Positions 1,549-56,144 of a DNA stretch of 64,000 bases are shown piece by piece (the first letter of the stretch is position 1; every line of letters starts with the position of its first letter). Location of the stretch: positions 68,821 through 132,820 of the forward strand of contig JADFYI010000004.1 of the NCBI GenBank assembly GCA_015233145.1, in the 5' to 3' direction. A model generated the notes under the pieces. That model ran no database searches. It saw only the letters and a list, made by a program, of their open reading frames with translations, and was not told where the DNA came from. The translations under genes were made by a program, and so were the position numbers. This DNA is from Candidatus Omnitrophota bacterium (GTDB lineage Bacteria > Omnitrophota > Gorgyraeia > Zapsychrales > Fredricksoniimonadaceae).

Positions 1549-2310
1549 TCAAGCCACTTCCCTATCCTGAGCTAGAGACTTTTGATAACCTTCATTACGG
1601 ATAATACCATCATTCATTCTATCAATACCGGGATGCTCATCCAAAAACTCCAGAACGTCCTTCATTGAAAAAAAGGCGTCTTTCTGATACAAAGCATCAT
1701 AAATAGCAGATAACTTCTCATAATCCCTTGGCTCATCCAGTGTCCAACGCTGGGATGAGTGGTCATTTTCACAAAGAACATTAACCTTTCTTACGGCATC
1801 ACTTTTTTTTATATATGGTGTCACATGTTCGCGCTCGGAAAGCATTTTTGCGTTTCCCCAGGCGCGATGTAGAATATCCGCGCTAAAAACCTCCACATCT
1901 TCGCCGTCCGGATAGGTCAGCTGCAATGTATTCGTTGCATAATCAGCACTAGAAGTAAAATATTCCCCAATAACACGATCAATAATATCCGGGTCAATCA
2001 TCGGGCAGTCCGCTGTAATGCGGACAATGTGCTGTAATTGAAAAAGCTTGGCCGTTTGATAATAACGGTCAAGGACATCATTCACTGAACCGCAAAAAAC
2101 ACCAACCCCCAAATGGCTTACAAAATTAACAACAGCCAAATCTTTAGAATCGATGGTTGTCGCCACAATGACCTGATCTACCCGTTTCGCATGCTGGCAA
2201 CGGCGTATCACATGCTCAAGAACAGGCTTGCCAGCCAAAGGCAGAAGTACTTTATTGGGCAAACGTGACGCACCCATCCGGGCCTGAATAATAACAGAGG
2301 CTTTTTTCAT
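1549..2310 (-). CDS. SpsF-type cytidylyltransferase (acylneuraminate cytidylyltransferase family)
   Basis: 253 aa. N-terminus VIIQARMGASRLPNKVLLPLAGKPVLEH matches the CMP-sugar synthetase/SpsF signature. 4-nt overlap with the upstream gene. Confidence 0.7.
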   Translation of the reverse strand: MKKASVIIQARMGASRLPNKVLLPLAGKPVLEHVIRRCQHAKRVDQVIVATTIDSKDLAVVNFVSHLGVGVFCGSVNDVLDRYYQTAKLFQLQHIVRITADCPMIDPDIIDRVIGEYFTSSADYATNTLQLTYPDGEDVEVFSADILHRAWGNAKMLSEREHVTPYIKKSDAVRKVNVLCENDHSSQRWTLDEPRDYEKLSAIYDALYQKDAFFSMKDVLEFLDEHPGIDRMNDGIIRNEGYQKSLAQDREVA

Positions 2311-3191
2311 AATTTAGGCCAAAGCATTGGATTTACAATATTCTCCGGGACATTTCTAAAAATATTGTCATCAATCTTCAAAATTTTTCTTGAAGAAAAA
2401 GCCCGTACATTACCCGTAACCTGCGCTTCGTTCTCAGCACCAAACAAAACAAAAGAATCTGGCCAGCGTTTTTCCGCATACCCCAAAAACAACTCTTGAC
2501 GGCTCACCTTCATCTGAAACGCCATTTGTTCCAATTGCTCAAGGTAAGGCCGCGCATACGCCATAGGCACCGGAACACGATCAAGGGGCATAAGTAACAG
2601 CCCTTGAAGGAAAACACTGCGCACAAAAACTTTCTTGCCACGTTCTTGACTCTTTTTAAAGACCCCGGCGTCTTCAAACCGTTTATCTAAAATATTCGCC
2701 GGAACTTGAATCAAATCAATCCCATTAATATCCAACGCCGCTAAAGCTTTTGGGGGGGCATAAAACGACACCCCGATGGACTTGACTTTTCCTTGACGGA
2801 CTAACTCCTGCAACAAATCACCCAGCCCTTTGTCCCAAAAGCGCACGCTGTCTTCATGATGCAATAAAAGGCCCTCAAGCTGGTCAACCTTTAGCCTGCA
2901 TAAAGAACCATCAACAGCCGTTCGGACAGCATCCTCATTGGATAAATCAAGTGCAGAATGAAGCTTGCTATACACTTTAACCTTTGCGGCTAACTTAAAC
3001 TTATCAAAGACCCTGCCCAAAACCTCTTCACTGTTCCCATAAGCCTGGGCTGTATCAAACCGTGTAATCCCATTTTCAAATGCGCCATGCACAATCCGGC
3101 AGGCATGGTCAAAATTCGGCTTTCCAGTTTCATTGCCGATCCCATACGGCATGCCAAGTTGAACAGTGCCAAGAACCAATCTATCCGTCAT
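2307..3191 (-). CDS. aldo/keto reductase
   Basis: 294 aa. LGTVQLGMPYG and FDTAQAYGNSEEVLG are a typical AKR N-terminus. Abuts the upstream gene. Confidence 0.8.
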   Translation of the reverse strand: MTDRLVLGTVQLGMPYGIGNETGKPNFDHACRIVHGAFENGITRFDTAQAYGNSEEVLGRVFDKFKLAAKVKVYSKLHSALDLSNEDAVRTAVDGSLCRLKVDQLEGLLLHHEDSVRFWDKGLGDLLQELVRQGKVKSIGVSFYAPPKALAALDINGIDLIQVPANILDKRFEDAGVFKKSQERGKKVFVRSVFLQGLLLMPLDRVPVPMAYARPYLEQLEQMAFQMKVSRQELFLGYAEKRWPDSFVLFGAENEAQVTGNVRAFSSRKILKIDDNIFRNVPENIVNPMLWPKL

Positions 3192-4508
3192 TTAAGTGAT
3201 CCGTTTAAATCCCGACACGGACGGCTCGCCCTGCAGCGCTGCACGTAACCCGCCGGAAATCTTTAGTTTTTTAATCTGCCCGAACACCTCATCCACTGCC
3301 AACAAATAGGAATCCGCCTGCTCACGGGTGTGCGCCAACATAGGATAAAATAAATTGGACGCCAAGAAACCTTTCTCGAGCATTTCCTGCACAAAAAATG
3401 CCTTCATGAGCAAGAAATCCTCATCATCAAAAGAAAAATGGCTGAGCGGGTATATTCCCGACACCTTAACCTTTAGCCCATGATGCTCCCCTGAAACCGC
3501 CCAGCCTTCCTGAATTAACCGCCCCATGGTCATCAAATGTTCATGTGCTTTAACGGCGCGAAACTTCTTGATCATAGCTAATGCTGCAGAGGGACCAACA
3601 CGCTCTGTCCACATCGTACTGCTAATAAAACTCTTCTGGGCTGATTCCATAACCGAAGCGCGTCCTATAATAGCTGCAATAGGATAGCCATTTCCCAAAG
3701 CTTTTGAAAAAACCGCCATGTCCGGATCCACACCATAAAGAAGATGCGCGCCTCCGCAATTCATGCGAAAACCAGATGATATTTCATCAAAAATAAATAC
3801 AGCGCCTGCCTGATCTGCCAGTTTCCGTACACCCTGCAGAAACCCCTTTTCTGGTGAGACATTACGTACCGGCTCCATCACAATAGCCGCAACCTTATCT
3901 TTATTTTTTAAAAGCACTTTTTCTAAGCTCTCAATATCGTTATAACGAAAAACTAGCGTCGTCCCTTTTAACGCCTTTGGCACGCCTGTGGGACTTAATC
4001 CCGGAATAAGATGCTCACCCAACGCGTTTTCAGTGCCCACGTTTGCAGCCAAATACCAGTCATGCCATCCGTGATAACCGCAAATGATAACAGTATCGCG
4101 GCCGGTATGCGCCCGCGCAATACGTACTGCAATCGCCATAGACTCTCCACCGCTGCGCGCGAAACGAGCCATCTGGGCCCAAGGATGCATACGACATAAC
4201 TCTTCTGCAAGCTCAACTTCTTCAGGACAATTCAACGAGGAGCTCGAACCATTGTTAATCGCCTCTACAACGGCGGCATTGACTTGGGGATCCGCATAAC
4301 CCAAGACATTCGCCCCTATCCCACCGATGCTCATGTCGATAAACTCATTGCCATCTAAATCCCAAACTTTTGCACCTTCAGCCTTGCTGTAATAGGCCGG
4401 CCAAACCCCCAACGAAAACATATCAGGACGCTTAGATAATAACTGACTCATCCCAGGAATAACCTGACGGGCTTTCTTTTGCATTATCAAAGAATTCATA
4501 TTTTTCAT
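3192..4508 (-). CDS. class-III PLP aminotransferase, glutamate-1-semialdehyde aminomutase-like
   Basis: ORF 3192-4526 trimmed to ATG 4506-4508, which forms an ATGA overlap with the pseC stop. Motifs GYHGWHDW, IFDEISSGFR and FSKALGNGYP (Schiff-base Lys). Confidence 0.75.
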   Translation of the reverse strand: MKNMNSLIMQKKARQVIPGMSQLLSKRPDMFSLGVWPAYYSKAEGAKVWDLDGNEFIDMSIGGIGANVLGYADPQVNAAVVEAINNGSSSSLNCPEEVELAEELCRMHPWAQMARFARSGGESMAIAVRIARAHTGRDTVIICGYHGWHDWYLAANVGTENALGEHLIPGLSPTGVPKALKGTTLVFRYNDIESLEKVLLKNKDKVAAIVMEPVRNVSPEKGFLQGVRKLADQAGAVFIFDEISSGFRMNCGGAHLLYGVDPDMAVFSKALGNGYPIAAIIGRASVMESAQKSFISSTMWTERVGPSAALAMIKKFRAVKAHEHLMTMGRLIQEGWAVSGEHHGLKVKVSGIYPLSHFSFDDEDFLLMKAFFVQEMLEKGFLASNLFYPMLAHTREQADSYLLAVDEVFGQIKKLKISGGLRAALQGEPSVSGFKRIT

Positions 4509-5683
4509 AAAATGTCCTGACCACATTGGAGAACCGCCGATATCACCCTTTTCACGTCACTATCCTTCAACCCCGGAAAAAGAGGCAACGACAGGCACTC
4601 TTCATAATATTTCTCTGCCTGGGAAAACCATGCATAAGAAACTTTAAAATTTCGGCTGTAAAAGGGGTGACGATAAACAGGAATATAATGGACCTGAGTG
4701 CCCACTCCCGACCTCGCTAACCTTCCCATGAAATTCTTACGAGAGATCTTAAGTTTCCTAAAATCAATACGAATAACATACAAGTGATACGCATGCGACT
4801 TGTCATCAATCGAAACCGAACGAATCCAGCTTCTTTGTCTAAACGCTGCGTTGTATCGAGAAACAATCTGTTGACGCCGGGCAATAAACTGGTTGATTTT
4901 CTTTAACTGACTCAATCCCAACGCAGCCTGCATATCCGTAAGGCGATAATTAAATCCTAATTCCCGCATCTCGTAATACCAAGGGCCAGGGTTTTTCTTC
5001 ATCACGCGAGGATCACGGATAACCCCATGTGAACGCAAAGAACGCAAACGGTCATAAAATTTCTTATCATTAGTCATGATAGCGCCCCCCTCACCAGTCG
5101 TAATCATCTTGACCGGGTGGAACGAAAAAATAGTCATATCAGAATACGCGCAATTACCAACCCTCCCGCCATCAGGATAAGAGCTGCCAATGGCATGCGC
5201 CGCATCCTCGATGACATAACATTTTCGACGGCGAGCAATCGCATCAATTCTTTTCATTTCCGCTGGACAACCGGCAAAATGAACCGGAATGATAAGCCTG
5301 GTATCTTTTTTAATCACACACTGCAACGCTTCAGGGGACATATTCGCCGTCTTGGCATCAACATCTGCAAACAACGGTTTAATCCCGTTATAAACCAAGG
5401 CATTTGCCGAAGCTAGAAATGTGATAGGCGAAGTAACGCCGGAACTGCCTTTTTTAAGGCCAAGTGAGGCCACAGCCAAATGGAGAGCGGCAGTTCCATT
5501 AGCCACAGCCACGCAATATTTTGCTCCGGTATAGGCGCATAAGGCGTGCTCAAACGCCTCAACCGCCGGGCCCTGCGTAAGAAACGGACTTTTTAATGTC
5601 CGTACCACAAACGCGACGTCGTCATTATCAATACTTTGCCGACCGTATGGCAATACTGAAACAGGCTTCTTCATCTTAAGCAT
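4505..5683 (-). CDS. pseC: UDP-4-amino-4,6-dideoxy-sugar aminotransferase, PseC-type (DegT family)
   Basis: 392 aa. LPYGRQSIDNDD, FLTQGP, ANGTAALHLA and FSFHPVKMITTGEGG (PLP Lys). Lies immediately downstream of the PseB-type dehydratase. Confidence 0.75.
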   Translation of the reverse strand: MLKMKKPVSVLPYGRQSIDNDDVAFVVRTLKSPFLTQGPAVEAFEHALCAYTGAKYCVAVANGTAALHLAVASLGLKKGSSGVTSPITFLASANALVYNGIKPLFADVDAKTANMSPEALQCVIKKDTRLIIPVHFAGCPAEMKRIDAIARRRKCYVIEDAAHAIGSSYPDGGRVGNCAYSDMTIFSFHPVKMITTGEGGAIMTNDKKFYDRLRSLRSHGVIRDPRVMKKNPGPWYYEMRELGFNYRLTDMQAALGLSQLKKINQFIARRQQIVSRYNAAFRQRSWIRSVSIDDKSHAYHLYVIRIDFRKLKISRKNFMGRLARSGVGTQVHYIPVYRHPFYSRNFKVSYAWFSQAEKYYEECLSLPLFPGLKDSDVKRVISAVLQCGQDIL

Positions 5684-6695
5684 CCAAATCTTTCCAATGA
5701 CGAACCATGGTCCTCAAATGCTCAACATTCAGCCAGTCCTTGTTAAGATCGCTGCGATAGATAAAACCCTCTGGCAGGGCCTTGCCACCTTTAAACTTGG
5801 CAAAAATATCTTCTGCGCTCATAAACTGAGGCAAAACAATAAAATGCCTCTCAAATTCCAACGCTTTTCTGGCCTCATCTTCAGAAATAAGCGATTCATG
5901 GATCTTTTCACCGGGGCGGATACCAATATTTTTAAGCACACAATCCGGCTCTAACGCTTTAGCGAGGTCAACCACACGCATGGAAGGTATTTTGGGGATA
6001 AAAATCTCCCCCCCCACAGATTCGTGAAGTGCCTTTAAAACCAAATCAACTCCCTGTTCAAGGGTTATCCAAAATCGGGTCATCCTTTCATCGGTAATAG
6101 GATATTCCCGGCAGCCCTCTTTCTTAAGGTTCACAAAAAAAGGTATCACACTCCCGCGAGAACCCACCACATTGCCATAGCGAACCGCAGAAAACTTAAC
6201 ACGCCCGCCGCCATAAGCATTGGCGGCTATAAAAGTTTTTTCTGCCACAAGTTTTGTGGCACCATAAAGATTGGCAGGATTGACCGCCTTGTCTGTTGAC
6301 AACGCCACGACTTTCTTCACACCAGTATCAATCGCCGCATCCACAATATTATCCGCGCCAAGTACATTAGTTTTAACTGCCTCCATCGGGTTATACTCCA
6401 AGGCAGGCACTTGCTTCAATGCTGCGGCATGGACCACATAATCCACACCCTCAAAAGCACGATTCAAACGGCCGCGGTCACGGATATCACCAATAAAATA
6501 ACGCACCGGATAACGGCTTTCCGGAAAAATCTTTCCCATCTCATATTGCTTAAATTCATCACGGCTAAAAATGATGAGCTTCTTGGGCTTATAGTTCTTT
6601 AATACGGTCTCGGTAAATTTCCTACCAAACGACCCGGTGCCCCCTGTAACTAAAATTGTTTTTCCATCCATAAAATTCCTTTGTTTGTTATTCAA
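5676..6695 (-). CDS. pseB: UDP-GlcNAc 4,6-dehydratase (inverting), PseB/FlaA1-type
   Basis: 339 aa. GKTILVTGGTGSFG Rossmann motif, FIGDIRD and YGATK (YxxxK). Size and motifs fit short CapD/PseB enzymes. Confidence 0.8.
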   Translation of the reverse strand: MNNKQRNFMDGKTILVTGGTGSFGRKFTETVLKNYKPKKLIIFSRDEFKQYEMGKIFPESRYPVRYFIGDIRDRGRLNRAFEGVDYVVHAAALKQVPALEYNPMEAVKTNVLGADNIVDAAIDTGVKKVVALSTDKAVNPANLYGATKLVAEKTFIAANAYGGGRVKFSAVRYGNVVGSRGSVIPFFVNLKKEGCREYPITDERMTRFWITLEQGVDLVLKALHESVGGEIFIPKIPSMRVVDLAKALEPDCVLKNIGIRPGEKIHESLISEDEARKALEFERHFIVLPQFMSAEDIFAKFKGGKALPEGFIYRSDLNKDWLNVEHLRTMVRHWKDLDA

Positions 6696-18884: not shown

Positions 18885-19994
18885 CTAAGTCAATTGTTTA
18901 ATAATATCCTCAACCGACTTGGGCCTTGCGAGCGCCCGGCATTTTTCTTTGGCCTGACGAAGCGTTTCCGGAGAGGATGAAAACTTTTTGATTTCCGCGG
19001 CGATTTCTTCAAGGCTCTTGTCGCTTAGCCCGATGCCGTGCCTGGCCAAAACCTCGACATTGCCCGCTTCTTGCCCGGGGATAGCGCTAAAAAAAATCAG
19101 CGGCAGCGAATTGGCAAGGGCTTCGGTGATCGAAAGCCCGCCGGGCTTGGTTAACATCACATCCGAGGCACTCATAAGTTCTTCCATATTATCAACAAAT
19201 TTACAAACCTTATGGAGAGGATTTCCCTGGGAAGACATTTTGTCAAAAAGGATTTTATTGTTCCCGCAGATAATAATCATCTGCTCGTCTTTCAAAAGCC
19301 TGGACAGCTCTTCAATCGGGCCAAAGCCAAACGAACTTGTGGATAAAAGAACTGTAAACTTGTCTTCCTTCAAGCCCAGTTTGCGGCGGATTTCTTTAGG
19401 GTCACGCGCCAGCGTAAACTTTTCATCACAAGGGATGCCGGTCACAACAATTTTCTTTTCATCCACTCCGAGCGCGGCAAGCCGCCCCTTGGTATAGTCA
19501 GAAGCCACGAGATACAGGTCGACCCCCTTGGAAAGCCAGATTTTGTGGACATCAAAATCTGTCACCATTGTGACAAGTTTTGCATCTGTCTCGCCCCTGA
19601 CTCGCATATCCCCGACAACTTCGGTAGAAAGAAAGTGCGTGGTCACAATAACGTCAAAATGGCCGTCCTTGACAAACTTGACAAGCGCCCCGGCGTTGGC
19701 CCCGTTATAAATACGGCGCGTGCGCTGAAAAAGAGGGAGCATCCATTTTTTATCTGTTAATTCAAAAAACACAGCCCAAAGCTTGGGAAGCTTGCCCACC
19801 ATAAACTCATAACCCTGGCTGTAGGCTTTGCGGAAAAATGAATTGGTGTGGTCAAGGGCATCAACAATCTGGACGTTGTCGATTTTGCGCGCGATGAGGC
19901 CGTGATAAATCGCCTCAGCGGCTTTTCGGTGGCCGGCTCCGGCGGTGGCGTGAAGGATGAGAATCTTTCTTGAGGATGAGTTCTGCTGCGTCAT
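18885..19994 (-). CDS. GT28 glycosyltransferase, MGDG synthase/UgtP-like diacylglycerol glycosyltransferase
   Basis: 369 aa. KILILHATAGAGHRKAAEAI N-terminus and PGGLSITEA C-terminal motif typical of the MGDG synthase family. Confidence 0.7.
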   Translation of the reverse strand: MTQQNSSSRKILILHATAGAGHRKAAEAIYHGLIARKIDNVQIVDALDHTNSFFRKAYSQGYEFMVGKLPKLWAVFFELTDKKWMLPLFQRTRRIYNGANAGALVKFVKDGHFDVIVTTHFLSTEVVGDMRVRGETDAKLVTMVTDFDVHKIWLSKGVDLYLVASDYTKGRLAALGVDEKKIVVTGIPCDEKFTLARDPKEIRRKLGLKEDKFTVLLSTSSFGFGPIEELSRLLKDEQMIIICGNNKILFDKMSSQGNPLHKVCKFVDNMEELMSASDVMLTKPGGLSITEALANSLPLIFFSAIPGQEAGNVEVLARHGIGLSDKSLEEIAAEIKKFSSSPETLRQAKEKCRALARPKSVEDIIKQLT

Positions 19995-20514
19995 AAAGGT
20001 CCTCCACGATAAAGTCAGGACGGACGTCCCAACGTTTCATATACTCGCGGTCCTCACGGCCCGAGAGGCAAAATATCGTTTTACACCCTGCGTTTTTGCC
20101 GGCCTTGACATCGCCCTCGGTGTCACCCACAAAATAGGCATGCGGGGCATCGTCAATGGTTTTATCAAGAAGCTCAAGGGCTTTAATGATATTCCCGATC
20201 CGGGGTTTGCGGCAGTTGCAGGCATCCGATGACTTGCAGGTACAGTACAACACTTCCCTGATCCTGCCGCCCGCCTCTTTAACGCCTTTAAGCATGTGCT
20301 CCGTGATCTGGTCGAGCTTTTCTTTGGAATAGACACCCTTCCCTACTCCGGCCTGATTGGAGACAACAAAAATATCATACCCCGCGTCAGTCAGGGCCTT
20401 CAACGCCTCAAGCGCCCGGGGAATAAAATGAAAATCCCTGACCCGGGTCACGTAAAGGCCGTTGCCGGGAAACTTGTTGATAACACCGTCTCTGTCTAAA
20501 AAGACAACTTGCAT
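19915..20514 (-). CDS. gmhB: D-glycero-D-manno-heptose 1,7-bisphosphate phosphatase (HAD)
   Basis: FLDRDGVIN (DxDGT/V HAD motif I), SNQAGVGKG, the CTCKSSDACNCRKP zinc loop and GDTEGDVKAG. The basic 3' tail overlaps the next gene by 80 nt. Confidence 0.75.
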   Translation of the reverse strand: MQVVFLDRDGVINKFPGNGLYVTRVRDFHFIPRALEALKALTDAGYDIFVVSNQAGVGKGVYSKEKLDQITEHMLKGVKEAGGRIREVLYCTCKSSDACNCRKPRIGNIIKALELLDKTIDDAPHAYFVGDTEGDVKAGKNAGCKTIFCLSGREDREYMKRWDVRPDFIVEDLYDAAELILKKDSHPSRHRRSRPPKSR

Positions 20515-25415: not shown

Positions 25416-26270
25416 TTAAATCATATTGCAAAAACGGCATGGAAGCATCCGTGATTTCTTATTCTTACGGTATTCACGCGCCAAGGCCCCGTTATAAATA
25501 TCCAAAAGCGACCGATCGTTGGCATTGCCCAGGATATACTCTCCTTCCATATCCATACAGCAAAGAGCCACAAGCCCATTGGCTAAAACAACCATGTTTT
25601 TTAAACGCTGGCAATGGATATCCTTAAAACCTCTAAAACTAAAAATCCGCGAAATATAATTATATTTATACCCCACCTTGATCTCAGCCCCTGGAAAATT
25701 CTGACGACAAAAAACGCAAAAACTGTCATTATATATTTTATTTCCAACCTTATCTTCTTTACCATGCTCAACGGAAGCAACAATAATATTTTCCGCAAAT
25801 TTACGCTCGCTATTAAGCCTTAACACATTTTTAATATTAGCCACAACCCTCTTGAAATCCAATCCTACTCTCCTTTTATAATCCAAAGGCTCAAAACCAT
25901 TAAGACTAAAATTAATTAAACGAATATTCCTTATCCGGGACAACTTCTCTGCACGCTCTTCATCTAAAAGAAACCCATTGGTGAAAACAACAATCCCTGC
26001 AGCCGGAAGTTCATGATTAATAAGATCAAGCCGATCAAAAATTTTCTTATCAAGAAACATTTCCCCATTTGCAAACGGATGAACATTTTCAGGGTTAATC
26101 TCCTTAAGATCTTTCAGCAGCTTCAAAAAAAGCTCATCCGACATATCGGTCAAACCGCGCTTCATGTTTCGATGATGGCAAAACTCACACTTCGCATTGC
26201 AGCGATTGGTTGTTTCAATCTGTATCTCTAAAGGACGCTCAACCCGTTCAATCCTTTTCTTCCAAAACAT
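25416..26270 (-). CDS. radical SAM protein with a C-terminal SPASM/twitch-like Cys cluster
   Basis: ETTNRCNAKCEFC (CxxxCxxC). C-terminal Cys residues CQRL...LCCMD...PCRFC. The gene looks much more AT-rich than its neighbours. Confidence 0.75.
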   Translation of the reverse strand: MFWKKRIERVERPLEIQIETTNRCNAKCEFCHHRNMKRGLTDMSDELFLKLLKDLKEINPENVHPFANGEMFLDKKIFDRLDLINHELPAAGIVVFTNGFLLDEERAEKLSRIRNIRLINFSLNGFEPLDYKRRVGLDFKRVVANIKNVLRLNSERKFAENIIVASVEHGKEDKVGNKIYNDSFCVFCRQNFPGAEIKVGYKYNYISRIFSFRGFKDIHCQRLKNMVVLANGLVALCCMDMEGEYILGNANDRSLLDIYNGALAREYRKNKKSRMLPCRFCNMI

Positions 26271-31944: not shown

Positions 31945-33123
31945 TTAATAGGAAGCCCCTTTGCTCTTTAAGAATTTTTGAACAACCTCAACCACATAAT
32001 CCAACTGCGACGGCTCAATGTCCTGGTGAATCCCGATATGCGTGCCGTGATTGCTGCAATACTCCGCCTCTGGAAAGTCGCCGAGCTTATACCCCAAAAA
32101 GGCATAGCTCGGACACTGGGTTGGCATGGCATAAAAAAGATTGCGCGAATCCACACCCTGGCTTTCAATGAAGGTCACAAATTCATCTTTTGTAAAATTA
32201 AGGCCTTCACGCAAAATCATGGAAAAAGCGTGCGGCCCGAGTTTTTCGTAAGGCTCTTGTTTCAGCGTAATAAAATATTTATCGAAAAGGCGGAATTTAT
32301 CGATCAGGTACAACATATTCCGACGGCGTTTTGCAAGGATGTCTGCGAAGATTTCAATGTTCCCGAGCCCGACAGCGGCTTCGATTTCATTCATCTTAGC
32401 GGAAAATCCAATGCGTTCAAAGGTAAATTTGCCTGTCATGCCGTGGTTGCGCAAAGACCGAAGGGCATCTGCTGTTTTTTCGCAATTGGTGATAATCATG
32501 CCGCCCTCGATCGTGGTCACGATATGCGCGGCATAAAGGCTGAAACAGGCCGTATCGCCCATCGCGCCGATCTTTTGCCCCTTATACTCTGCGCCGTGCG
32601 CTTCGGCCGCATCTTCAATCACTTTCAAATTGTGCTTTCTGGCAATACTTAAAATTTTATCCATTTCCGCGGGCTTGCCCATAAGGTGGACCGGCATAAT
32701 GGCACGGGTACGCTTTGTGATTTTTTCCTCAATTTTGTCCGGGTCAATATTCAAAGTGTCACGCTTGACGTCCACAAAGACCGGTGTAAGCCCGGCCTGA
32801 AAAACAGCGTTGCCGGTGGCCACAAACGAGAGCGCCGGAATAATGACCTCATCCCCGCGCCTGGCGCCAAAATCATAAAGCGCGGCGCATGCCAAAGCAT
32901 CCGCGTCGGTGCCGCTCGAAACCGCAACCCCGTATTTGACACCAAAGAGAGCCGCGAATTTGTCTTCAAACTCTTTAACGTATTTGCCCTTGGTCACCCA
33001 TTTTGTTTCAAGGGCCTCGTCAATAAGCTTGCGCGCCTTGGGCGTGATGGAAACCGTTCCAAAGGGGACTTTATAGCCTGATTTCCTGAATTCCTGGCCT
33101 GCTGATATTGTCATACGCTTCAC
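31945..33123 (-). CDS. DegT-fold PMP-dependent sugar 3-dehydratase candidate (ColD/E1-like, His replaces the PLP lysine)
   Basis: 392 aa. CFSLYAAHIVTTIEGG aligns with SFHPVK (pseC) and SFYPTK (21286 gene). His200 is codon CAT, the rc of 32524-32526. 4-nt overlap with the hddC-like gene. Confidence 0.55.
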   Translation of the reverse strand: MKRMTISAGQEFRKSGYKVPFGTVSITPKARKLIDEALETKWVTKGKYVKEFEDKFAALFGVKYGVAVSSGTDADALACAALYDFGARRGDEVIIPALSFVATGNAVFQAGLTPVFVDVKRDTLNIDPDKIEEKITKRTRAIMPVHLMGKPAEMDKILSIARKHNLKVIEDAAEAHGAEYKGQKIGAMGDTACFSLYAAHIVTTIEGGMIITNCEKTADALRSLRNHGMTGKFTFERIGFSAKMNEIEAAVGLGNIEIFADILAKRRRNMLYLIDKFRLFDKYFITLKQEPYEKLGPHAFSMILREGLNFTKDEFVTFIESQGVDSRNLFYAMPTQCPSYAFLGYKLGDFPEAEYCSNHGTHIGIHQDIEPSQLDYVVEVVQKFLKSKGASY

Positions 33124-33821
33124 TCAATCATTTCATTTAAATGTTTCTTGGCCCACTCAAATCGTTCGGGTGTTCCGATATCAATAAAAGGGGCATCCAC
33201 CTTATGACAAAAAAACCTATTGCCGATCAGCTTTGGAAAAAAGTCATACTCAATGGAAAATTTTGTGGGCGGCATCATATCAAAAACGCTTTTATTGAAA
33301 CAATAAACGCCGGCGCTGATATACTGCACGTCTTTTGTGACAAACTTTTCCTTAAACGCCGTGATTTCCTCTTTGTCGTTGGTGAGAATTGTCCCGAAAT
33401 CCTTGTTGCCTTCAATGCGCACACCGACCAACGTGGCAAGGGCATTTTTGGCCTGATGCCCACGCAAAAGCTCCTGATAATTGACGGGTGTAAAGCAATC
33501 ACCGTTCAGGCCAAACACGTAAGGTTTCTTGACGAGAGGCGCGGCATTCTTTAATGCGCCGCCGGTCCCCAAAGGCTCACGTTCAATCGAAAGATGCAGT
33601 TCAATATTCTTAAATTTTTCCTTATAATACGCCTCAAACGCCTCGGCCTTATACCCGGCACAAAGGATAATGCGCGCCGCGCCCTGTTTTATGAGGTAGC
33701 GAATCAGGAAGTCCAGGAAAGGCTCACCCTGCACAGAGGCCATCACCTTGGGCGTTTCACCCGTGACAGACCGAAGGCGCGTCCCCAGCCCTCCACACAA
33801 AATTAGAAAATCAGCATCCAT
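33120..33821 (-). CDS. hddC: sugar-1-phosphate nucleotidyltransferase, HddC-like (heptose-1-P guanylyltransferase candidate)
   Basis: LILCGGLGTRLR nucleotidyltransferase signature, 233 aa, adjacent to the GHMP heptose kinase-like gene. Confidence 0.55.
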   Translation of the reverse strand: MDADFLILCGGLGTRLRSVTGETPKVMASVQGEPFLDFLIRYLIKQGAARIILCAGYKAEAFEAYYKEKFKNIELHLSIEREPLGTGGALKNAAPLVKKPYVFGLNGDCFTPVNYQELLRGHQAKNALATLVGVRIEGNKDFGTILTNDKEEITAFKEKFVTKDVQYISAGVYCFNKSVFDMMPPTKFSIEYDFFPKLIGNRFFCHKVDAPFIDIGTPERFEWAKKHLNEMIE

Positions 33822-33826
33822 AAGTT

Positions 33827-34825
33827 TTACGCAACGACTCCGCTGTTAGGTTGATAAAAAATAATCTGGCTCCCCAGGGTTTCAAAATGGAACGGGATTT
33901 CCAAAAGCCCTTTTAACGCGCTTCTGACCAACGGCTTTTTTTCAGGCTCGGCATAAATCAGGATAAACCCGCCGCCGCCAGCGCCTAAAAGTTTTCCGCC
34001 CAAAGCCCCGGCCTTGAGGGCCTTGTCATAAATATCATCAATATAGGATGTCGTGATCTTGTCGGAAAGCGTGCGCTTGATCTGCCAGCTTTCACCAAGG
34101 AGCTTCCCAAAACGCAGGAGATCATTCGCGTTTAAGGCGCTGAGCGCCTGCGTCACCAAATGATACATGGCCGCAAGTTCCTGCTTTTTATTGGGAATAT
34201 TCTGTATTTGATGGACCGCAATCTGCGAGGCCGTACGCGCGAACCCGGTAAAAAAAATCATCATATGGTCTTGAAGCGCGGTTATCCTCTCTTTGGAAAG
34301 CGTGACAGGCCGCACGCCCAGCTGGCCGTCCCTGCCGAATTCAATATAATTCAACCCGCCATACGCGGCCAAAGCCTGGTCCTGGCAGCCGACATTTTCC
34401 TTGATCATGTTTTGTTCAATATGGATCGCTTCGCGAGCCATTTGCTCTTTGGTGGCCATGGTGCCTTTAAGCGCGTAAAGCGAATTCAAAAGGCCCACTG
34501 TAAACGAGGAACTCGAGCCCAGGCCCGCACGGGCCGGCAAATCACCATCGTGATGAATCTCAATGCCCTGGTGGATATTGAGAAACCGCAGAGTTTCACG
34601 CACCGATGGATGGTCAATCTCATCGACATTCTGGACATGCTCCATTTTGGAATAAATAATGCGCGATTTATGGTCAAAAAAAGGAGGAAGATAACGCGCC
34701 GTGATATAGCAATATTTGTCAATCGTTGTGGCCAAAACCGCGCCCGGGTTGTCATGAAACCACTGGGGATAATCGGTTCCTCCGCCAAAAAAAGACACAC
34801 GAAACGGGGTGCGGCTGATAATCAT
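33827..34825 (-). CDS. hddA: GHMP kinase, HddA-like (D-glycero-alpha-D-manno-heptose-7-P kinase candidate)
   Basis: SRTPFRVSFFGGGTDYP and GDLPARAGLGSSSSF (GHMP motif II). Confidence 0.6.
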   Translation of the reverse strand: MIISRTPFRVSFFGGGTDYPQWFHDNPGAVLATTIDKYCYITARYLPPFFDHKSRIIYSKMEHVQNVDEIDHPSVRETLRFLNIHQGIEIHHDGDLPARAGLGSSSSFTVGLLNSLYALKGTMATKEQMAREAIHIEQNMIKENVGCQDQALAAYGGLNYIEFGRDGQLGVRPVTLSKERITALQDHMMIFFTGFARTASQIAVHQIQNIPNKKQELAAMYHLVTQALSALNANDLLRFGKLLGESWQIKRTLSDKITTSYIDDIYDKALKAGALGGKLLGAGGGGFILIYAEPEKKPLVRSALKGLLEIPFHFETLGSQIIFYQPNSGVVA

Positions 34826-36066
34826 ACCTTCTCCCTTATTTTGACCTTAAGCATATCTTGGATCTCATCCACGACAACGCTTCCAAATTTTGAACCCATG
34901 AAAGACAAATACTTTCCATCCGAATAATATTCGTTAAAGGCATTGTCCCGAAACCGCAGCACGTCCAATCCGCTGAGATGCTTTGTCGGCACGGGCTTGA
35001 AACGCGGACTCATTTGTGAAAACTCCTCCCCTGTCTGGGGCATGTCAATCCCGCGGGATTTCATGTCTTCATAAAGCTGGCTTCCGGGATATGCGGTCAC
35101 GCAATAAAAGTTAGAATACTCGCACAAAAGTTCACGGCTCAGGTCAAAGGTGGCGCGCATGGTATCCAAATTGTCATCCCAGAATCCAAACATGTAATTA
35201 CCAATAATATGGATGCCCGCGTCTTTTGTCATCCTGATGACATCACGGATTTTCGCATTATCAAAACGGCCTTTCATAATATCTTTGCGGATATTCTCAT
35301 CACCGGATTCAATGCCATAGGCCAGCCATAAAATACCGGCGGAACGCAGCTTCTTTAAAAGCGCAGCATCAACCGTATCTATCCGCGCGTAGGCCCAAAT
35401 ATTGATCTCGCTCCCCAGTCCGCTTGCTTTTAAAAGCTCTAAAACAGCATGGACGCCCTTGTTATTGATCGCAAAAAGCTCATCCATCATCTTGAAATTG
35501 GTAATCCCCTTGTCAACAAGCCCGCGGACATCATCAAGAAGCAGGCGCGGTTCCCGCTGAGTATAGTCTGACCTGTAAAAATCTTTCACGCAACAAAACT
35601 CACAGGAAAACGGGCACGAAATACTTGAAAAGACAGCGCCGTAAGACTTGTCTTTCCGGCCCCACGAGTGCCAGTTATGCGCGCGATAAGACTTAACCGG
35701 CACCAGGCTCCAGTCCGGCGGGGCCATCTCAACAGGATTAAACACAAGGTGGTTATAAACATCCACCGGAAGCCTTAACGCGGTCACAATAAGATTACGC
35801 AGGTTTTCAGCAGCCTCGGTCTGCTGGATATGAGCCGAAGGATGCGAACCAATGGCCAAAACCACCACACGCTCCGCCGCCAGTTCCTTAAGCCGCACAA
35901 GCAATCCCGCGCCGTCAAGGCCTTCGGCCTCCATATCCACTATTTTTGCGCCTGGAAACTTCTGGGCAAAAAGCACAAGCCAGATCGGCGGCTCAATGGC
36001 GGAAAGATGCACCACCCGGCCGTACTGCTTTCTTTTCTCATTAGGTTTTACCAAAACAACAGACAT
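34822..36066 (-). CDS. B12-binding (class B) radical SAM enzyme
   Basis: The N-terminal about 110 aa resemble a cobalamin-binding Rossmann-like domain. Followed by SSISCPFSCEFCCV (CxxxCxxC), 414 aa in total. Confidence 0.7.
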   Translation of the reverse strand: MSVVLVKPNEKRKQYGRVVHLSAIEPPIWLVLFAQKFPGAKIVDMEAEGLDGAGLLVRLKELAAERVVVLAIGSHPSAHIQQTEAAENLRNLIVTALRLPVDVYNHLVFNPVEMAPPDWSLVPVKSYRAHNWHSWGRKDKSYGAVFSSISCPFSCEFCCVKDFYRSDYTQREPRLLLDDVRGLVDKGITNFKMMDELFAINNKGVHAVLELLKASGLGSEINIWAYARIDTVDAALLKKLRSAGILWLAYGIESGDENIRKDIMKGRFDNAKIRDVIRMTKDAGIHIIGNYMFGFWDDNLDTMRATFDLSRELLCEYSNFYCVTAYPGSQLYEDMKSRGIDMPQTGEEFSQMSPRFKPVPTKHLSGLDVLRFRDNAFNEYYSDGKYLSFMGSKFGSVVVDEIQDMLKVKIREKV

Positions 36067-36072
36067 AATATT

Positions 36073-37005
36073 TTAAACATTAGCGTACTGATTGCGTTTT
36101 AAAATTTGATAAGTCTTTACCAATTCCCTGATTCCAGAAGATAACGACATGTCCGGCTTAAACCCTGTCTTTTCAATTTTGTCATTGGAAACGATATAAT
36201 CACGCTTATCCGGGTCTTCGCCGACAGCCGCTTCCACGAAATAAAAATCCGGGATCTGCTTTTTGATCTCTTCGCACAGTTCCTTTTTGCTCAAATTGGC
36301 ATCGCTTAACCCCACGTTATAAGGCTCGTTTTTCATCTTTTCAAAATTGTTCAAAGAATGGATAAAGGCCTTGGCCACATCGCGCGTGTGGATAAAATTA
36401 CGCTTGAAATGCGCCTCAAAAAGGATCACAAAACGGTCATACACCGCGCGGTAAACAAAATCATTGACCAACAAATCAAGCCTCATGCGCGGGCTTGCGC
36501 CAAAAGCCGTGGCCAGGCGCAGGGTAATGCCGTGTCCGCTGTCCAATACAATTTTCTCCGCGTCACACTTGAGCCTCCCATAGACAGAAATCGGCCTTAA
36601 CGGCGTTTCCTCTGTGCAAAATTTCCCCTTTTCACCGACACCGTATCCGCTGTTGGTCGTCGGAAAAATAACCGGCTGGCTCTTTGAGGAAAAATCGACA
36701 GCCATTTTGATGGCATCCACAAGGATCGTTTGCGCGGCAATAGGGTCTTTGGCGCATAAAGGAGCACCCGTAAGACAGGCCAAAGGGAAAAGCGCATCAG
36801 ACTCTTTAACGAGCTTTTCAACAATTTTCTTATCCCTGGCATCACCCCGCACAATCGTCAGTTTCGGGTTGTGGCAAATATCCAAAAGCGGCGTCTGGTT
36901 ATACATAAAATTATCCAAAACCGCAACCTCATGCCCGGCGTCCAAAAGGCGAGGCACCATCACAGACCCCAAATAACCGGCGCCGCCTGTCACTAAAATC
37001 TTCAT
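36073..37005 (-). CDS. NAD-dependent extended SDR epimerase/dehydratase/reductase
   Basis: ILVTGGAGYLGS and YGRLK (YxxxK). Confidence 0.75.
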   Translation of the reverse strand: MKILVTGGAGYLGSVMVPRLLDAGHEVAVLDNFMYNQTPLLDICHNPKLTIVRGDARDKKIVEKLVKESDALFPLACLTGAPLCAKDPIAAQTILVDAIKMAVDFSSKSQPVIFPTTNSGYGVGEKGKFCTEETPLRPISVYGRLKCDAEKIVLDSGHGITLRLATAFGASPRMRLDLLVNDFVYRAVYDRFVILFEAHFKRNFIHTRDVAKAFIHSLNNFEKMKNEPYNVGLSDANLSKKELCEEIKKQIPDFYFVEAAVGEDPDKRDYIVSNDKIEKTGFKPDMSLSSGIRELVKTYQILKRNQYANV

Positions 37006-37022: not shown

Positions 37023-37997
37023 TTAAGGCAAATTAAATAAACTTCTCTTCACAACAAATGTTTGCTCCTCAAGCCCTGCTTCACAGGTGGCTGAAATCCC
37101 CTCGCGAAGGCCGGTCGGGGCATTCCATCCCAGGGATTTAATGCGGGAACTGTCCAAAAGCTTGCGCATGACGCCATCAGGCCTTGTTTTATCCCAGGTT
37201 ATTTGTCCCCGATATCCGACAATGGAGGCAATCACTGCAGCCAATTCCCCGATTTCCACATCAATGCCGGTGCCGATATTAATAAGCTCCGGGGAATGAT
37301 ACCTCTCCAGAAGAAAAAGGCAGGCCTCCGTAAGGTCATCGCCGAAAATAAATTCCCGCCGCGGCTTGCCGCTGCCCCACAACTCAACATGGCGCGTCCC
37401 CATTTTGGCAGCCTTGCGGAGTTTGCCGATCAAAGCGCCCATGACATGGGCTTCTTCAAGGTCGCGCTCAGGGGCCGGGCCATAAACTGTCGCTGGTACC
37501 GCTGAAATAGCAGGAAACCCGTACTGCTTGAAGTACGCCTGGCACATCACCACTCCCGCCGCCTTAGCCATGGAATACGGCTCGCTTATTTTCTCCATGG
37601 TCCCTGTTAAAAAATATTCCTCTTTGATGGGCTGCGGGCAATCCTGGGGATAAACGCAGGAGGCGGCCAAAAATAACAGTTTTTTAACTCCCACACGGTA
37701 AGAAAAATCAATCACATTATTTTGCGCCTGAAGGTTTTCAAACATAAACTCAGCCCCGTGAGCCTGGTTGGCCGCAATGCCGCCGGCACGGACTGAAGAA
37801 AGGATCACAAACTCCGGGCGCTCCCTGTCCATAAACGCACGCAGGGCCTTGCCGTCCAAAGGATTTAAACTGAGCTCCGTCGAGGAAAGCACGGATGAAA
37901 ATCCCCGACGGTAAAGCCCGCGGACTAAAGACATTTCAATCGCGTCGGCATGGCCGACAATAAGTATTTTCGACTTTTTGACGATTCCTGCGCGCAT
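37023..37997 (-). CDS. GDP-L-fucose synthase (Fcl)/ColC-like SDR with an atypical dinucleotide motif
   Basis: Collinear with E. coli Fcl as recalled: AASCVYP, YSMAKAAG, WGSGKPRREF and DKTRPDGVMRKLLD. The N-terminal GxxGxxG position reads GHADAIE. Confidence 0.6.
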   Translation of the reverse strand: MRAGIVKKSKILIVGHADAIEMSLVRGLYRRGFSSVLSSTELSLNPLDGKALRAFMDRERPEFVILSSVRAGGIAANQAHGAEFMFENLQAQNNVIDFSYRVGVKKLLFLAASCVYPQDCPQPIKEEYFLTGTMEKISEPYSMAKAAGVVMCQAYFKQYGFPAISAVPATVYGPAPERDLEEAHVMGALIGKLRKAAKMGTRHVELWGSGKPRREFIFGDDLTEACLFLLERYHSPELINIGTGIDVEIGELAAVIASIVGYRGQITWDKTRPDGVMRKLLDSSRIKSLGWNAPTGLREGISATCEAGLEEQTFVVKRSLFNLP

Positions 37998-37999
37998 AA

Positions 38000-38536
38000 T
38001 TACTTCTCGTTATAATAATTGCCGTCTTCAATCAGAAGCGTGGCACGGTTATCTTCCCGCTCAAAAGCGCGCTGATAGGCTGGAAAAATATCCTGCGGCT
38101 CGGAAAGTTCAACAACCTCAATCCAGTCAAAAAGCTTACGGAAAGACTCTGCAAAATTCCCCACATGCTGATGCCCGGGATGCACTGGTTTATAAGGCCC
38201 TGTGGCCACGCGGATAATAACTTTAGGAGTGACCCGCCCCTGGCTCATGGCCGGGAATTTGTCGAGCATGTTGGACATGTCTCCCGTTGCCAGCAATAAA
38301 AAATTCTGGCGCGGATAAACAGAGACCGGAACATAGCCGGCCAGCGCCAGGCCTATGGAAAACTGCATCTGGAAACTTTCATTGACCGGGAATTCAACCG
38401 CACGGTCTTTGGGCACGTCCCGCAGGGTCTGGTACATAAATGTGCCCGGCACCGCTGCGGTCTGGCCGACAAAAATCGTTTTGGGCTGTGTGGCCAGCCA
38501 TTCCATGGTCCGTTTAAGCTCGTCGAAATATTTCAT
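38000..38536 (-). CDS. ThDP-enzyme beta-like subunit (Pyr domain only, E1-beta-like)
   Basis: 178 aa. EFPVNESFQMQFSIGLALAG contains the conserved ThDP-activating Glu context. Lacks the C-terminal transketolase domain of E1-beta. Confidence 0.6.
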   Translation of the reverse strand: MKYFDELKRTMEWLATQPKTIFVGQTAAVPGTFMYQTLRDVPKDRAVEFPVNESFQMQFSIGLALAGYVPVSVYPRQNFLLLATGDMSNMLDKFPAMSQGRVTPKVIIRVATGPYKPVHPGHQHVGNFAESFRKLFDWIEVVELSEPQDIFPAYQRAFEREDNRATLLIEDGNYYNEK

Positions 38537-38537
38537 A

Positions 38538-39161
38538 TTAAAATTTTATGAGTTTTCCAAGCCCGGAATGCGGCCAGCCGTTCTTGTATTGAAAATAAAC
38601 AATTTTTTTCTCAAACCGCGTCCCCTTAAACCAGGGTTCTTCAGAGCCCCATGTTTCACGGGTCTGGGTCATAACACTGAGTCCGTTGTCAGACACGATA
38701 AATTTTGCCGGTAAATCAAAATTAACAGCATACTTGACCGCCTCATGAAAAATTCCGGTCTCCGACGACATGTCACCGCAAAAAAGAAACACGCGCCCCT
38801 TTTTGCCCTCATGCTTAAGCGCCCAGGCGACACCCGTGGCAACACCCATGAGGCTCCCGACAATCCCTGAGCAGAAAATCTTGTGTTCTGGAAAACAAAG
38901 CGCAATGCTGCGTCCGTCCATGATCGCGGCTAACACTTCTTCCCGCGCAACGCCTTTGAGCAGGCAAAGCTCATGCGAATCCCAAAAACCAAAAAGATAA
39001 TCGTCAGCACCGATATTGTATTCTTGAAAAATACGAATAAGCTCTTCTTCACGCCCGGAACGAAGATGCACCGGCGCTTTGATGAGCCCCTGGGCAAAAA
39101 TTCCGGCGACTTCATTCTCAAAGCCTTCCAGGTCTTTTTTGGTTAACGCTGTCATGGCCAT
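38538..39161 (-). CDS. ThDP-enzyme alpha-like subunit (PP domain, E1-alpha-like, minimal)
   Basis: 207 aa. GDMSSETGIFHEAVKYAVNFDLPAKFIVSDNG fits the GDG-X(25-30)-N ThDP/Mg motif (GDM-X26-DN). Confidence 0.6.
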   Translation of the reverse strand: MAMTALTKKDLEGFENEVAGIFAQGLIKAPVHLRSGREEELIRIFQEYNIGADDYLFGFWDSHELCLLKGVAREEVLAAIMDGRSIALCFPEHKIFCSGIVGSLMGVATGVAWALKHEGKKGRVFLFCGDMSSETGIFHEAVKYAVNFDLPAKFIVSDNGLSVMTQTRETWGSEEPWFKGTRFEKKIVYFQYKNGWPHSGLGKLIKF

Positions 39162-40102
39162 TATAAATTCTCTTTAAACCACTCAATTGTCTTGGCAAGG
39201 CCTTCCCGTAACGAAACTTTTGGCTCCCAGCCTAACTTGGCCCTGGCTATGGAAATATCAGGTTTACGCTGTTTAGGATCATCCTGAGGAAACGGCTCGT
39301 AAACAAACTTGCTCCTGCTGCCCGTCAGTTCCAGCACAATTTTGGCAAATTCAATAATGGTAAATTCCCCGGGATTGCCGATATTCACAGGGCCACTCAG
39401 GTTCGAAAACATGAGCCGCAAAATCCCTTTGGCCTCATCGTCAACATAACAAAAGGAGCGTGTCTGCTTTCCATCGCCATAAATCGTCAACGGGAGCCCC
39501 TTAAGCGCCTGATAAATAAAATTCGGCACCACACGCCCGTCATGAAGATTCATGCGGGGGCCGTAAGTATTAAAAATACGCACGACTTTGGTGTCCACCT
39601 TAAATGTACGCCGATACGCAAATGTTACTGCTTCGGCATAACGCTTGGCCTCATCATAAACACTGCGCGGGCCAATGGGATTAACGTTGCCCCAATAGGT
39701 TTCTTTTTGGGGATGCTCCTTAGGGTCGCCGTAGACTTCTGAAGTCGATGTTAAAAGAAACACGGCTTTTTTTGCTTTCGCGATTTCAAGCATGTGATGG
39801 GTACCTTGCGAGCCCACCAAAAGCGTTTCCACAGGATGGTTCAGGTAATCCACCGGGCTCGCCGGAGACGCGCAATGCATCACATAATCAATCTTTCCGG
39901 GAATCTTAAAAGGCCTTGAGACATCCTGTTTGATCAGCGTAAAATTCTTGTCTTTCAAAAGATGCGCGATATTGGTTTTTTTGCCTGTAATAAAATTATC
40001 AACGCAAAAAATCCTGTGCCCCTGCTCCATAAGCTGGTCGCACATGTGGCTTGGTAAAAATCCTGCCCCGCCGCTCATGAGCGTTACTTTCTTTCTTGTC
40101 AT
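39161..40102 (-). CDS. UDP-glucuronate decarboxylase (UXS-like SDR)
   Basis: 313 aa. [23 protein letters not shown] and YDEAKR. The third Gly of the Rossmann motif is Pro. Confidence 0.75.
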
Positions 40103-40114
40103 GCGATCCTCTTT

Positions 40115-42731: not shown

Positions 42732-42750
42732 TTTTCTTCCTTCAGTCTTT

Positions 42751-55895: not shown

Positions 55896-56144
55896 TTCCG
55901 TTGCCTTCGGCAACAAACTACGCCGGTTAGACGAATCCGCAAGAAGAATAACATTAAATATAAATATAAGTCAATGTAAGGAGATAAATAAGAGGGAAAT
56001 TATTTATATCTCTAAGTAGCTGGGAAATAACAACTTAATAGATATTTAACAATGAATAGGAAAAGATTTTCTTGTTTTCTTGATAATTTCACTAGAAAAC
56101 AACGAAAAATTTCGTGGTGAAGGTGGAAACAACCTTCTAGGACA

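Follow-up and report, generated by a model that had tools for sequence, protein, structure and literature searches.

A DegT-family protein with histidine at the Schiff-base lysine position in an Omnitrophota envelope-glycan island is a predicted GDP-heptose 3-dehydratase

What reaction is catalyzed by a DegT-fold protein in which histidine stands where an aminotransferase carries its Schiff-base lysine? This question is raised by an open reading frame (ORF) at positions 31945 to 33123 of a 64,000-nucleotide stretch (hereafter the window) of contig JADFYI010000004.1 from a Candidatus Omnitrophota bacterium. By sequence, its product (hereafter the query) is a member of the clade of His-type 3-dehydratases and forms a subfamily separate from those of ColD and E1. 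The query is probably a ColD-like 3-dehydratase, dependent on pyridoxamine 5′-phosphate (PMP) and glutamate, that makes GDP-3-deoxy-4-keto-heptose. The kind of enzyme is known, but the subfamily is new.

The Pfam family PF01041 (DegT_DnrJ_EryC1) covers the ORF end to end (residues 28-381, E=2e-103). Its active-site motif, FSLYAAHIVTTIEGG, is encoded at 32500-32544 on the minus strand, and the corresponding motifs of two further DegT proteins of the window, FSFHPVKMITTGEGG in the PseC-like ORF 4505-5683 and FSFYPTKGLGAWGDGG in ORF 21286-22386, lie on the same strand at 5084-5128 and 21802-21849, respectively. An earlier note on this DNA had quoted these three pyridoxal 5′-phosphate (PLP)-site motifs and had read the histidine codon CAT as the reverse complement of 32524-32526; all three motifs are present where it had placed them, and the codon was read again in the sequence. 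The residue number in that note, His200, holds for the GTG start of the ORF. However, the closest homologues are 389 aa long and begin at the position of an in-frame ATG (33114-33112), so that translation probably starts there, at 33114, the protein has 389 aa, and the residue is probably His197.

In a phmmer alignment, the histidine pairs with the catalytic Lys186 of GDP-perosamine synthase ('fsffgnKiittgegg'). An alignment of 163 family members anchored on a hidden Markov model (HMM) places it in the column of His188 of ColD, His220 of E1, and the histidine of the putative dehydratase 9WVY, a column occupied by lysine in PerA, PseC, and the product of ORF 21286-22386. These alignments bear out the assignment of histidine to the aminotransferase lysine position, and neither of them shows an alternative lysine within the FSLYAAHIVTTIEGG loop, an outcome that the note had named as contradicting its reading. 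Replacement of the Schiff-base lysine by histidine is the hallmark of His-type dehydratases (PMC8987622; bioRxiv 2021.09.04.459008).

A homologue search covering 5.8 billion proteins listed 120 relatives that are 74-87% identical to the query, mostly from metagenome-assembled genomes of Candidatus Omnitrophota, and annotated only as 'DegT family aminotransferase' or dTDP-amino-sugar transaminase. The motif F-S-L-Y-A-A-H occurs in all 120 of them. It was also detected in 19 of 20 orthologue ORFs used in the tree described below; in the remaining one, from locus L065, the pattern match fell in an upstream segment. In the aligned column, histidine is found in 27/27 members of the subfamily and is kept by all sampled orthologues. 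When one genome of each species was scanned, relatives turned up in 288 species-level genomes; those at 54-59% identity come from Brocadia, Elusimicrobia, Deltaproteobacteria, Nitrospiraceae, Magnetobacteriaceae, Margulisiibacteriota, Firestonebacteria, Geobacter, and Sedimentisphaerales, and His-bearing orthologues span about 10 phyla. The histidine is neither a chance substitution nor a sequencing error. Loss of the canonical lysine might still mark a catalytically dead aminotransferase relic retained for a structural or regulatory role, but we regard this as extremely improbable: identity remains high across the 120 clusters, the cofactor-site residues of the family (S70-G71-T72, D171, E174, and S195) are invariant, the lysine has given way to a conserved histidine and not to random residues, the position in the operon is stable across phyla, and the AlphaFold2 model is confident (predicted local distance difference test score, 84.7; predicted template modeling [TM] score, 0.87). 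Three loci (L067, L069, and L081) each contain two His-type DegT copies less than 10 kb apart.

General comparisons did not separate dehydratases from transaminases. The curated NCBIfam models were undecided, because the best of them, RfbH/E1 (NF011936; 242.6 bits, cutoff 423, with the match split into two stretches), tied with PseC (242 bits, cutoff 423.5) and both scores were far under the cutoffs; the scores for LegC (231, cutoff 420), ArnB (197, cutoff 631), and WecE (165, cutoff 435) were likewise below threshold. A Foldseek comparison of the AlphaFold2 model with the PDB was unable to split the two classes, since perosamine synthase, E1, ArnB, PseC, and ColD all matched with TM scores of 0.78-0.84.

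We then compared the query with its 150 nearest 50%-identity cluster representatives (P0121-P0270), which were sampled without a word index. Histidine is carried by 79 of them, including nearly all of the nearest 20, and lysine by 66. The His-carrying representatives fall into at least five supported subclades, with motifs such as 'CFSTYxAHxxxTGVGG' and 'FSFxxSHTITTGEGG', and one of these subclades holds the characterized enzymes. Reference sequences were taken from PDB alignments, and the ColD sequence used matched 2GMS exactly. We masked the His/Lys column and built a neighbor-joining tree of 163 sequences (99 His, 64 Lys). The 99 with histidine, ColD, E1, and 9WVY among them, grouped in a single clade (bootstrap 85), and the 64 with lysine, perosamine synthase being one of these, all fell outside it. 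The query subfamily has 27 members and the motif FSLYxAHIITTIEGG (bootstrap 95).

HMMs gave the same answer when the catalytic column was masked and the query's subfamily was omitted from the His-clade profile. The query scored 507 bits with this profile and 419 bits with that of the Lys group (+88), while the differences were +28 to +47 bits for ColD, E1, and 9WVY and -100 to -133 bits for PerA, PseC, and the product of ORF 21286-22386. Of the 10 columns that discriminate best, 9 show the residue of the His clade in the query (for example, A199, G364, H366, and Q367). The phylogeny proposed in the earlier note as a check therefore places the ORF with known dehydratases and not among aminotransferases, and the masked tree and HMMs support its view of the protein as a C3-deoxygenating enzyme rather than a transaminase. 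The best pairwise hits of the query, to perosamine synthases, had suggested an independent and recent Lys-to-His change; this origin was rejected by the two masked analyses and is also undercut by an E1-like representative that likewise ranks PerA above ColD.

ColD from E. coli O55 (GDP-4-keto-6-deoxy-D-mannose 3-dehydratase; PDB 2GMS) shares with the query its fold, its histidine in place of lysine, and its clade. Like ColD, the query is predicted to lack an Fe-S cluster, and its substrate is likewise predicted to be GDP linked. The query is nevertheless not an orthologue of ColD or of E1: it is 29-30% identical to ColD, the Ser-His pair of ColD (S187/H188) is Ala199-His200 in the query, and the 'xHH' subclade of ColD (bootstrap 90) differs from the 'AHI' subclade of the query (bootstrap 95). 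E1 (RfbH/DdhC; CDP-6-deoxy-L-threo-D-glycero-4-hexulose 3-dehydrase; PDB 3BCX) also has histidine at the lysine position, preceded as in the query by an alanine (A199) and, three residues upstream, by a tyrosine (Tyr217 of E1, Y197 of the query), but the C-terminal domain has diverged, so that the two proteins match in two stretches, and the context of E1 is CDP where that of the query is GDP. Asp194 of E1 is a glutamate in the query (E174), as in ColD; like Tyr217 and the residue before the histidine, it is one of the sites with reported importance in E1 and ColD. The query region aligned to E1 'DCYCAPGCDNTC' has none of the [2Fe-2S] cysteines, the cysteine-rich insertion being absent, and no E3-type (flavin or Fe-S) reductase gene was found among the Pfam and NCBIfam matches of the neighboring genes. 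On these two absences, we rejected an E1-type mechanism and regard the ColD-type cycle as the better model. In that cycle, the histidine abstracts a proton, the ketimine formed by PMP and the sugar loses the C3 hydroxyl, hydrolysis follows, and glutamate restores PMP (PMC8987622; PMC10440746).

The best solved match to the query is the GDP-perosamine synthase of Caulobacter crescentus (3BN1/3DR4/3DR7; 37% identity, 240 bits, TM score 0.84). This enzyme also uses a GDP-4-keto sugar, but it has a catalytic lysine (Lys186), is a true aminotransferase, lies outside the His clade, and, unlike the query, fits the Lys-group HMM better than the His HMM (by 133 bits). Since perosamine synthases are its closest solved relatives by both score and fold, the query might itself work as an aminotransferase, with PMP exchanging freely, and produce GDP-4-amino-4-deoxy-heptose. 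SpnQ does transaminate in the absence of its reductase (PMC8987622), and transamination of a 4-keto-heptose is known from septacidin biosynthesis (SepG; PMC9978623). We consider this activity unlikely, as the histidine is strictly conserved in the subfamily and the dehydratase-type covarying positions are common to the clade. Moreover, ColD and E1 are without transferase activity under comparable conditions (PMC8987622), and the clustered ORFs of the distant loci described below include no conserved N-acyl or N-methyl transferase in the module.

If the query is a 3-dehydratase, an NDP-4-keto-sugar should be supplied to it, and a predicted supplier is indeed encoded alongside. The genes from 42803 down to 28986 are all on the minus strand, and the GTG start of the query ORF overlaps the stop codon of a sugar-1-phosphate nucleotidyltransferase gene (coordinates of all features are given in Table 1). 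The same operon encodes a GHMP sugar kinase and a short-chain dehydrogenase/reductase (SDR) that is ∼60% identical to Cj1427 of Campylobacter jejuni, has the TNSGYG motif of that enzyme, and lacks the TDE/TSE acid/base pair of 4,6-dehydratases. We identified the solved chain 6VO6 as C. jejuni Cj1427 because it contains RAFKMMKV, which is also the translation of the published primer Cj1427cF918 (PMC3546167). Cj1427 makes GDP-D-glycero-4-keto-D-lyxo-heptose and, when combined in vitro with a ColD-type C3-dehydratase, yields GDP-D-glycero-3-deoxy-4-keto-heptose, presented by the authors as a novel compound (PMC10680097). The C3-dehydratases of C. jejuni use GDP-4-keto-heptoses, and one of them accepts the Cj1427 product (PMC10440746; PMC10680097). 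Those of serotypes HS:5 and HS:11 are ColD orthologues, 62-67% identical, that act after a 4,6-dehydratase (PMC10440746), whereas the partner of the query within the window is a C4-dehydrogenase. For this reason, the predicted substrate would keep its 6-hydroxyl and would not be a 4-keto-6-deoxy sugar.

The link to genes for heptose-activating enzymes is conserved. In 39 related loci with at least 7 kb on both sides (well flanked), the query gene is linked to the kinase gene in 38 (54-79% identity), to the nucleotidyltransferase gene in 34, to the Cj1427-like gene in 33, to the gene of a B12-domain radical S-adenosylmethionine (SAM) enzyme in 33, and to a gene resembling GDP-L-fucose synthase (Fcl) in 27. 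We also sorted the ORFs from the 22 most distant loci into clusters. A different SDR is encoded in seven of these loci (in one list L066, L070, L071, L073, L074, L078, and L081; L067 has both SDRs), and in six of the seven it stands in place of the Cj1427-like protein. This SDR is homologous to GDP-heptose 4,6-dehydratase, with 285 bits to PDB 7US5 against 143 bits to GDP-mannose dehydratase. The query gene thus adjoins a homologue of one or the other of the two C. jejuni enzymes that make a GDP-4-keto-heptose, and this is the strongest argument for the nature of its substrate. The earlier note had proposed, from genomic context, a GDP-heptose-derived ketosugar; the identity to Cj1427 and the seven loci with a 7US5-like homologue strengthen that proposal, and gene context makes a GDP-heptose the most likely substrate.

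Upstream of the operon genes just described, an SDR resembling UXS is preceded by two genes of the UDP-glucose/GDP-mannose dehydrogenase family (39161-42803), and this segment resembles a branch toward UDP-xylose or a 4-keto-pentose that lies immediately before the genes of a thiamine enzyme. A role of the UXS-like SDR as a heptose 4,6-dehydratase was rejected in view of its motifs, the UDP-sugar dehydrogenase genes upstream, and its absence from distant loci. The query could instead be a His-type PMP enzyme that acts on another substrate or step, such as the UDP-4-keto-pentose, a sugar branched by the thiamine enzyme, or some other PMP chemistry. We give this alternative a minor but real chance. 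In Omnitrophota, the UXS-like gene, the two UDP-sugar dehydrogenase genes, and a minimal thiamine enzyme lie immediately upstream, a heterodimer resembling pyruvate dehydrogenase (PDH) E1 offers a proposed precedent on UDP-4-keto-xylose (PMC10338323), the query subfamily is distinct from all characterized dehydratases, and no function is assigned to the radical SAM partner. However, among the distant loci that keep the query gene, the UXS-like gene is found in 0/14, while the heptose kinase-like gene is found in 14/14 and a Cj1427-like or heptose 4,6-dehydratase-like gene persists; in addition, the nucleotidyltransferase and the Fcl-like reductase indicate GDP and not UDP.

The radical SAM gene raises another alternative, in which the query forms an amino sugar by transamination and the radical SAM enzyme then removes the amino group, as in the DesI/DesII pair. 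That pair is a known precedent for two-step deoxygenation, and the DegT and radical SAM genes are close together in 33/39 loci. DesI, however, carries a catalytic lysine, and the radical SAM enzyme encoded here belongs to the B12-domain class, with the radical diol dehydratase AprD4 (PDB 6FD2, 59 bits) as its best solved relative. Furthermore, the B12 radical SAM family is gone from six of the seven 4,6-dehydratase-type loci (L067 keeps it) and all seven retain the query gene, so the role of the query appears independent of the radical SAM partner. As the His-type gene persists where its supposed partner is missing, we rejected a DesI/DesII-type pairing, which has a very low probability. Cj1427-like and B12 radical SAM genes occur together in the window and in L002, L063, L065, L067, L068, L076, L079, L080, and L082.

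For a 3-dehydratase acting on a GDP-heptose, we infer the following scheme, which extends to the precise substrate, the use of glutamate, and the sequence of downstream reactions. The Cj1427-like C4-dehydrogenase would supply the 4-keto substrate, whose C4 would form a ketimine with PMP in the active site of the query; His200 would take the C4′ proton, and the C3 hydroxyl would be expelled. Hydrolysis of the resulting enamine would release GDP-3-deoxy-4-keto-heptose, ammonia, and PLP, and L-glutamate would convert PLP back to PMP as in ColD, with neither an Fe-S cluster nor an E3-type reductase. In each turnover, the dehydratase would yield one α-ketoglutarate and the Cj1427-type dehydrogenase uses one, which could couple the two steps. 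The Fcl-like SDR is predicted to follow as a C5 (or C3/C5) epimerase and C4-reductase of the 3-deoxy-4-keto product, a role similar to that of ColC or Cj1428. This protein scored 202-225 bits against 7M13 and 7ANH, chains of 345-373 aa deposited as GDP-L-fucose synthase, which we take to be C. jejuni heptose C4-reductases.

A carbon branch might be added at C4 before the SDR step by the linked thiamine enzyme (38000-39161), a candidate C4-branching enzyme. In the window, this enzyme is a minimal one whose two subunits (178 and 207 aa) comprise only the pyrimidine-binding and diphosphate-binding domains. The β-like subunit is kept in 21/25 Omnitrophota loci as well as in L002 and L063, and a two-subunit thiamine enzyme is found in most well-flanked loci, in three nonorthologous forms: the minimal α/β pair (Omnitrophota, L002, and L063) and, in other phyla, a full-size E1 α/β enzyme or a split transketolase. 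Yersiniose A biosynthesis is the precedent: after E1 and E3 have removed the C3 hydroxyl, the 3,6-dideoxy-4-keto sugar receives a two-carbon branch at C4 from the thiamine enzyme YerE (PMC9306805). The yersiniose pathway (E1, YerE, and YerF) thus resembles the operon in combining 3-deoxygenation of a 4-keto sugar with a thiamine-dependent enzyme, but YerE is of the acetolactate synthase type, whereas the thiamine enzyme of the module is E1-α/β or transketolase-like. Its acceptor is uncertain, because the UXS-like gene is likewise a neighbor of the thiamine genes and, in everninomicin biosynthesis, acetylation of UDP-4-keto-xylose by a PDH-E1-like heterodimer has been proposed (PMC10338323). 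Tentatively, and with less confidence than in the dehydratase reaction, we suggest that the query acts at the committed step of a GDP-heptose pathway that is widespread but has not been described before, in which coupled C4-dehydrogenase and 3-dehydratase reactions and thiamine-dependent C4 branching would lead to a yersiniose-like, branched higher-carbon envelope sugar. This pathway would occur in Omnitrophota, anammox Brocadia, Elusimicrobia, Nitrospirota, Margulisiibacteriota, and others.

Several observations weigh against a GDP-heptose 3-dehydratase. The best solved match of the query is an aminotransferase, GDP-perosamine synthase, at 240 bits, compared with ∼169 bits for ColD and E1. 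The three characterized dehydratases (ColD, E1, and 9WVY) are 28-30% identical to the query and belong to a different subclade ('HH', xHHITTGEGG; bootstrap 90). At one site implicated in E1 specificity, F345 of E1 is A299 in the query. The tree was made by neighbor joining, not by maximum likelihood, and it samples sequences similar to the query instead of the whole DegT family. Regarding the heptose, the kinase and the nucleotidyltransferase score far under the NCBIfam cutoffs for HddA and HddC. Moreover, a search for GmhA gave no hit in the 64-kb window or in the 10-kb surroundings of any of 80 related loci (the E. coli sequence used for this search was validated as GmhA at 404 bits), and the window has a lone GmhB-like phosphatase gene (19915-20514) without GmhA. 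That phosphatase, although distant in the window, is possibly shared with the pathway of the query.

The closest known counterpart is the capsular GDP-heptose system of C. jejuni (HddA, HddC, Cj1427, Cj1428, and DdahA). The operon has homologues of its kinase, guanylyltransferase, C4-dehydrogenase, and Fcl-like C4-reductase, and the variant loci also share with it the heptose 4,6-dehydratase homologue. In contrast, the operon has neither an in-cluster GmhA nor a cupin-type C3/C5 epimerase, and three of its components, a thiamine enzyme, a B12-class radical SAM enzyme, and a His-type DegT protein from a different subfamily, are not part of the C. jejuni system. The hosts of the module are Omnitrophota, Brocadia, Elusimicrobia, and other environmental phyla. 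GDP-3-deoxy-4-keto-heptose is so far known only from the mixing of C. jejuni enzymes in vitro, and the locus suggests that, in nature, a Cj1427 orthologue is paired with a different His-type subfamily for the same chemistry. The operon therefore offers a testable route to 3-deoxy-heptoses in nature, possibly branched ones, and could provide new enzymes for rare GDP-heptoses and a first handle on the envelope glycans of uncultured phyla. The database label 'aminotransferase' probably names the wrong reaction class for a family present in the 288 species-level genomes. More generally, much deoxysugar chemistry may be hidden under this label, since more of the 150 nearest representatives carry histidine than lysine and those with histidine form at least five supported subclades, of which one, a small one, has been studied so far.

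Table 1. Features of the window discussed in the text
Feature	Position	Strand	Size, score, or basis
DegT-fold, His-type (PMP-dependent) predicted sugar-nucleotide 3-dehydratase (query)	31945..33123	-	392 aa from GTG
CAT codon, His200 (His197 from ATG start), Schiff-base lysine position	32524..32526	-	Sequence read and alignments
Sugar-1-phosphate nucleotidyltransferase, HddC-like or Man-1-P guanylyltransferase-like	33120..33821	-	HddC 157.5 bits (cutoff 300), Man-1-P guanylyltransferase 154
GHMP sugar kinase, HddA-like	33827..34825	-	HddA 143 bits (cutoff 600); best PDB matches, heptose kinases 3K85, 4USK, 4N3O
B12-binding-domain class radical SAM enzyme	34822..36066	-	PF04055; NCBIfam all far below cutoffs
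Cj1427-like NAD-dependent GDP-heptose C4-dehydrogenase (SDR)	36073..37005	-	408 bits, E=3e-121, full length vs 6VO6/6VO8
GDP-L-fucose synthase-like SDR	37023..37997	-	NCBIfam Fcl 326 bits (cutoff 500); PDB GDP-fucose synthases 234-242 bits
Minimal thiamine-diphosphate enzyme, beta-like (pyrimidine-binding) subunit	38000..38536	-	178 aa; PF02779
Minimal thiamine-diphosphate enzyme, E1-alpha-like (diphosphate-binding) subunit	38538..39161	-	207 aa; PF00676; PDH E1-alpha 32 bits
UXS-like SDR	39161..40102	-	Motifs; two UDP-sugar dehydrogenase genes upstream
GmhB-like HAD phosphatase (heptose 1,7-bisphosphate phosphatase family)	19915..20514	-	NCBIfam GmhB 144 bits (cutoff 178); tblastn with E. coli GmhB
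PseB-like dehydratase	5676..6695	-	
Lys-type PseC-like DegT	4505..5683	-	
Class-III aminotransferase	3192..4526	-	
Aldo-keto reductase	2307..3191	-	
CMP-type cytidylyltransferase	1549..2310	-	

The region around the module is a lipopolysaccharide and envelope-glycan island. A 1,411-aa ORF at 51681-55916 (minus strand) had no Pfam match at E<=1e-6. Downstream of the module, the segment 19915-23465 (minus strand) encodes the GmhB-like phosphatase and a GT9 heptosyltransferase, and LptD is encoded at 42751-44976. A radical SAM/SPASM protein is encoded at 25416-26270 (minus strand) among glycosyltransferase and methyltransferase genes of the envelope-glycan region, and the segment 777-6695 (minus strand) contains a gene set resembling that for nonulosonic acids, which includes the Lys-type PseC-like protein.

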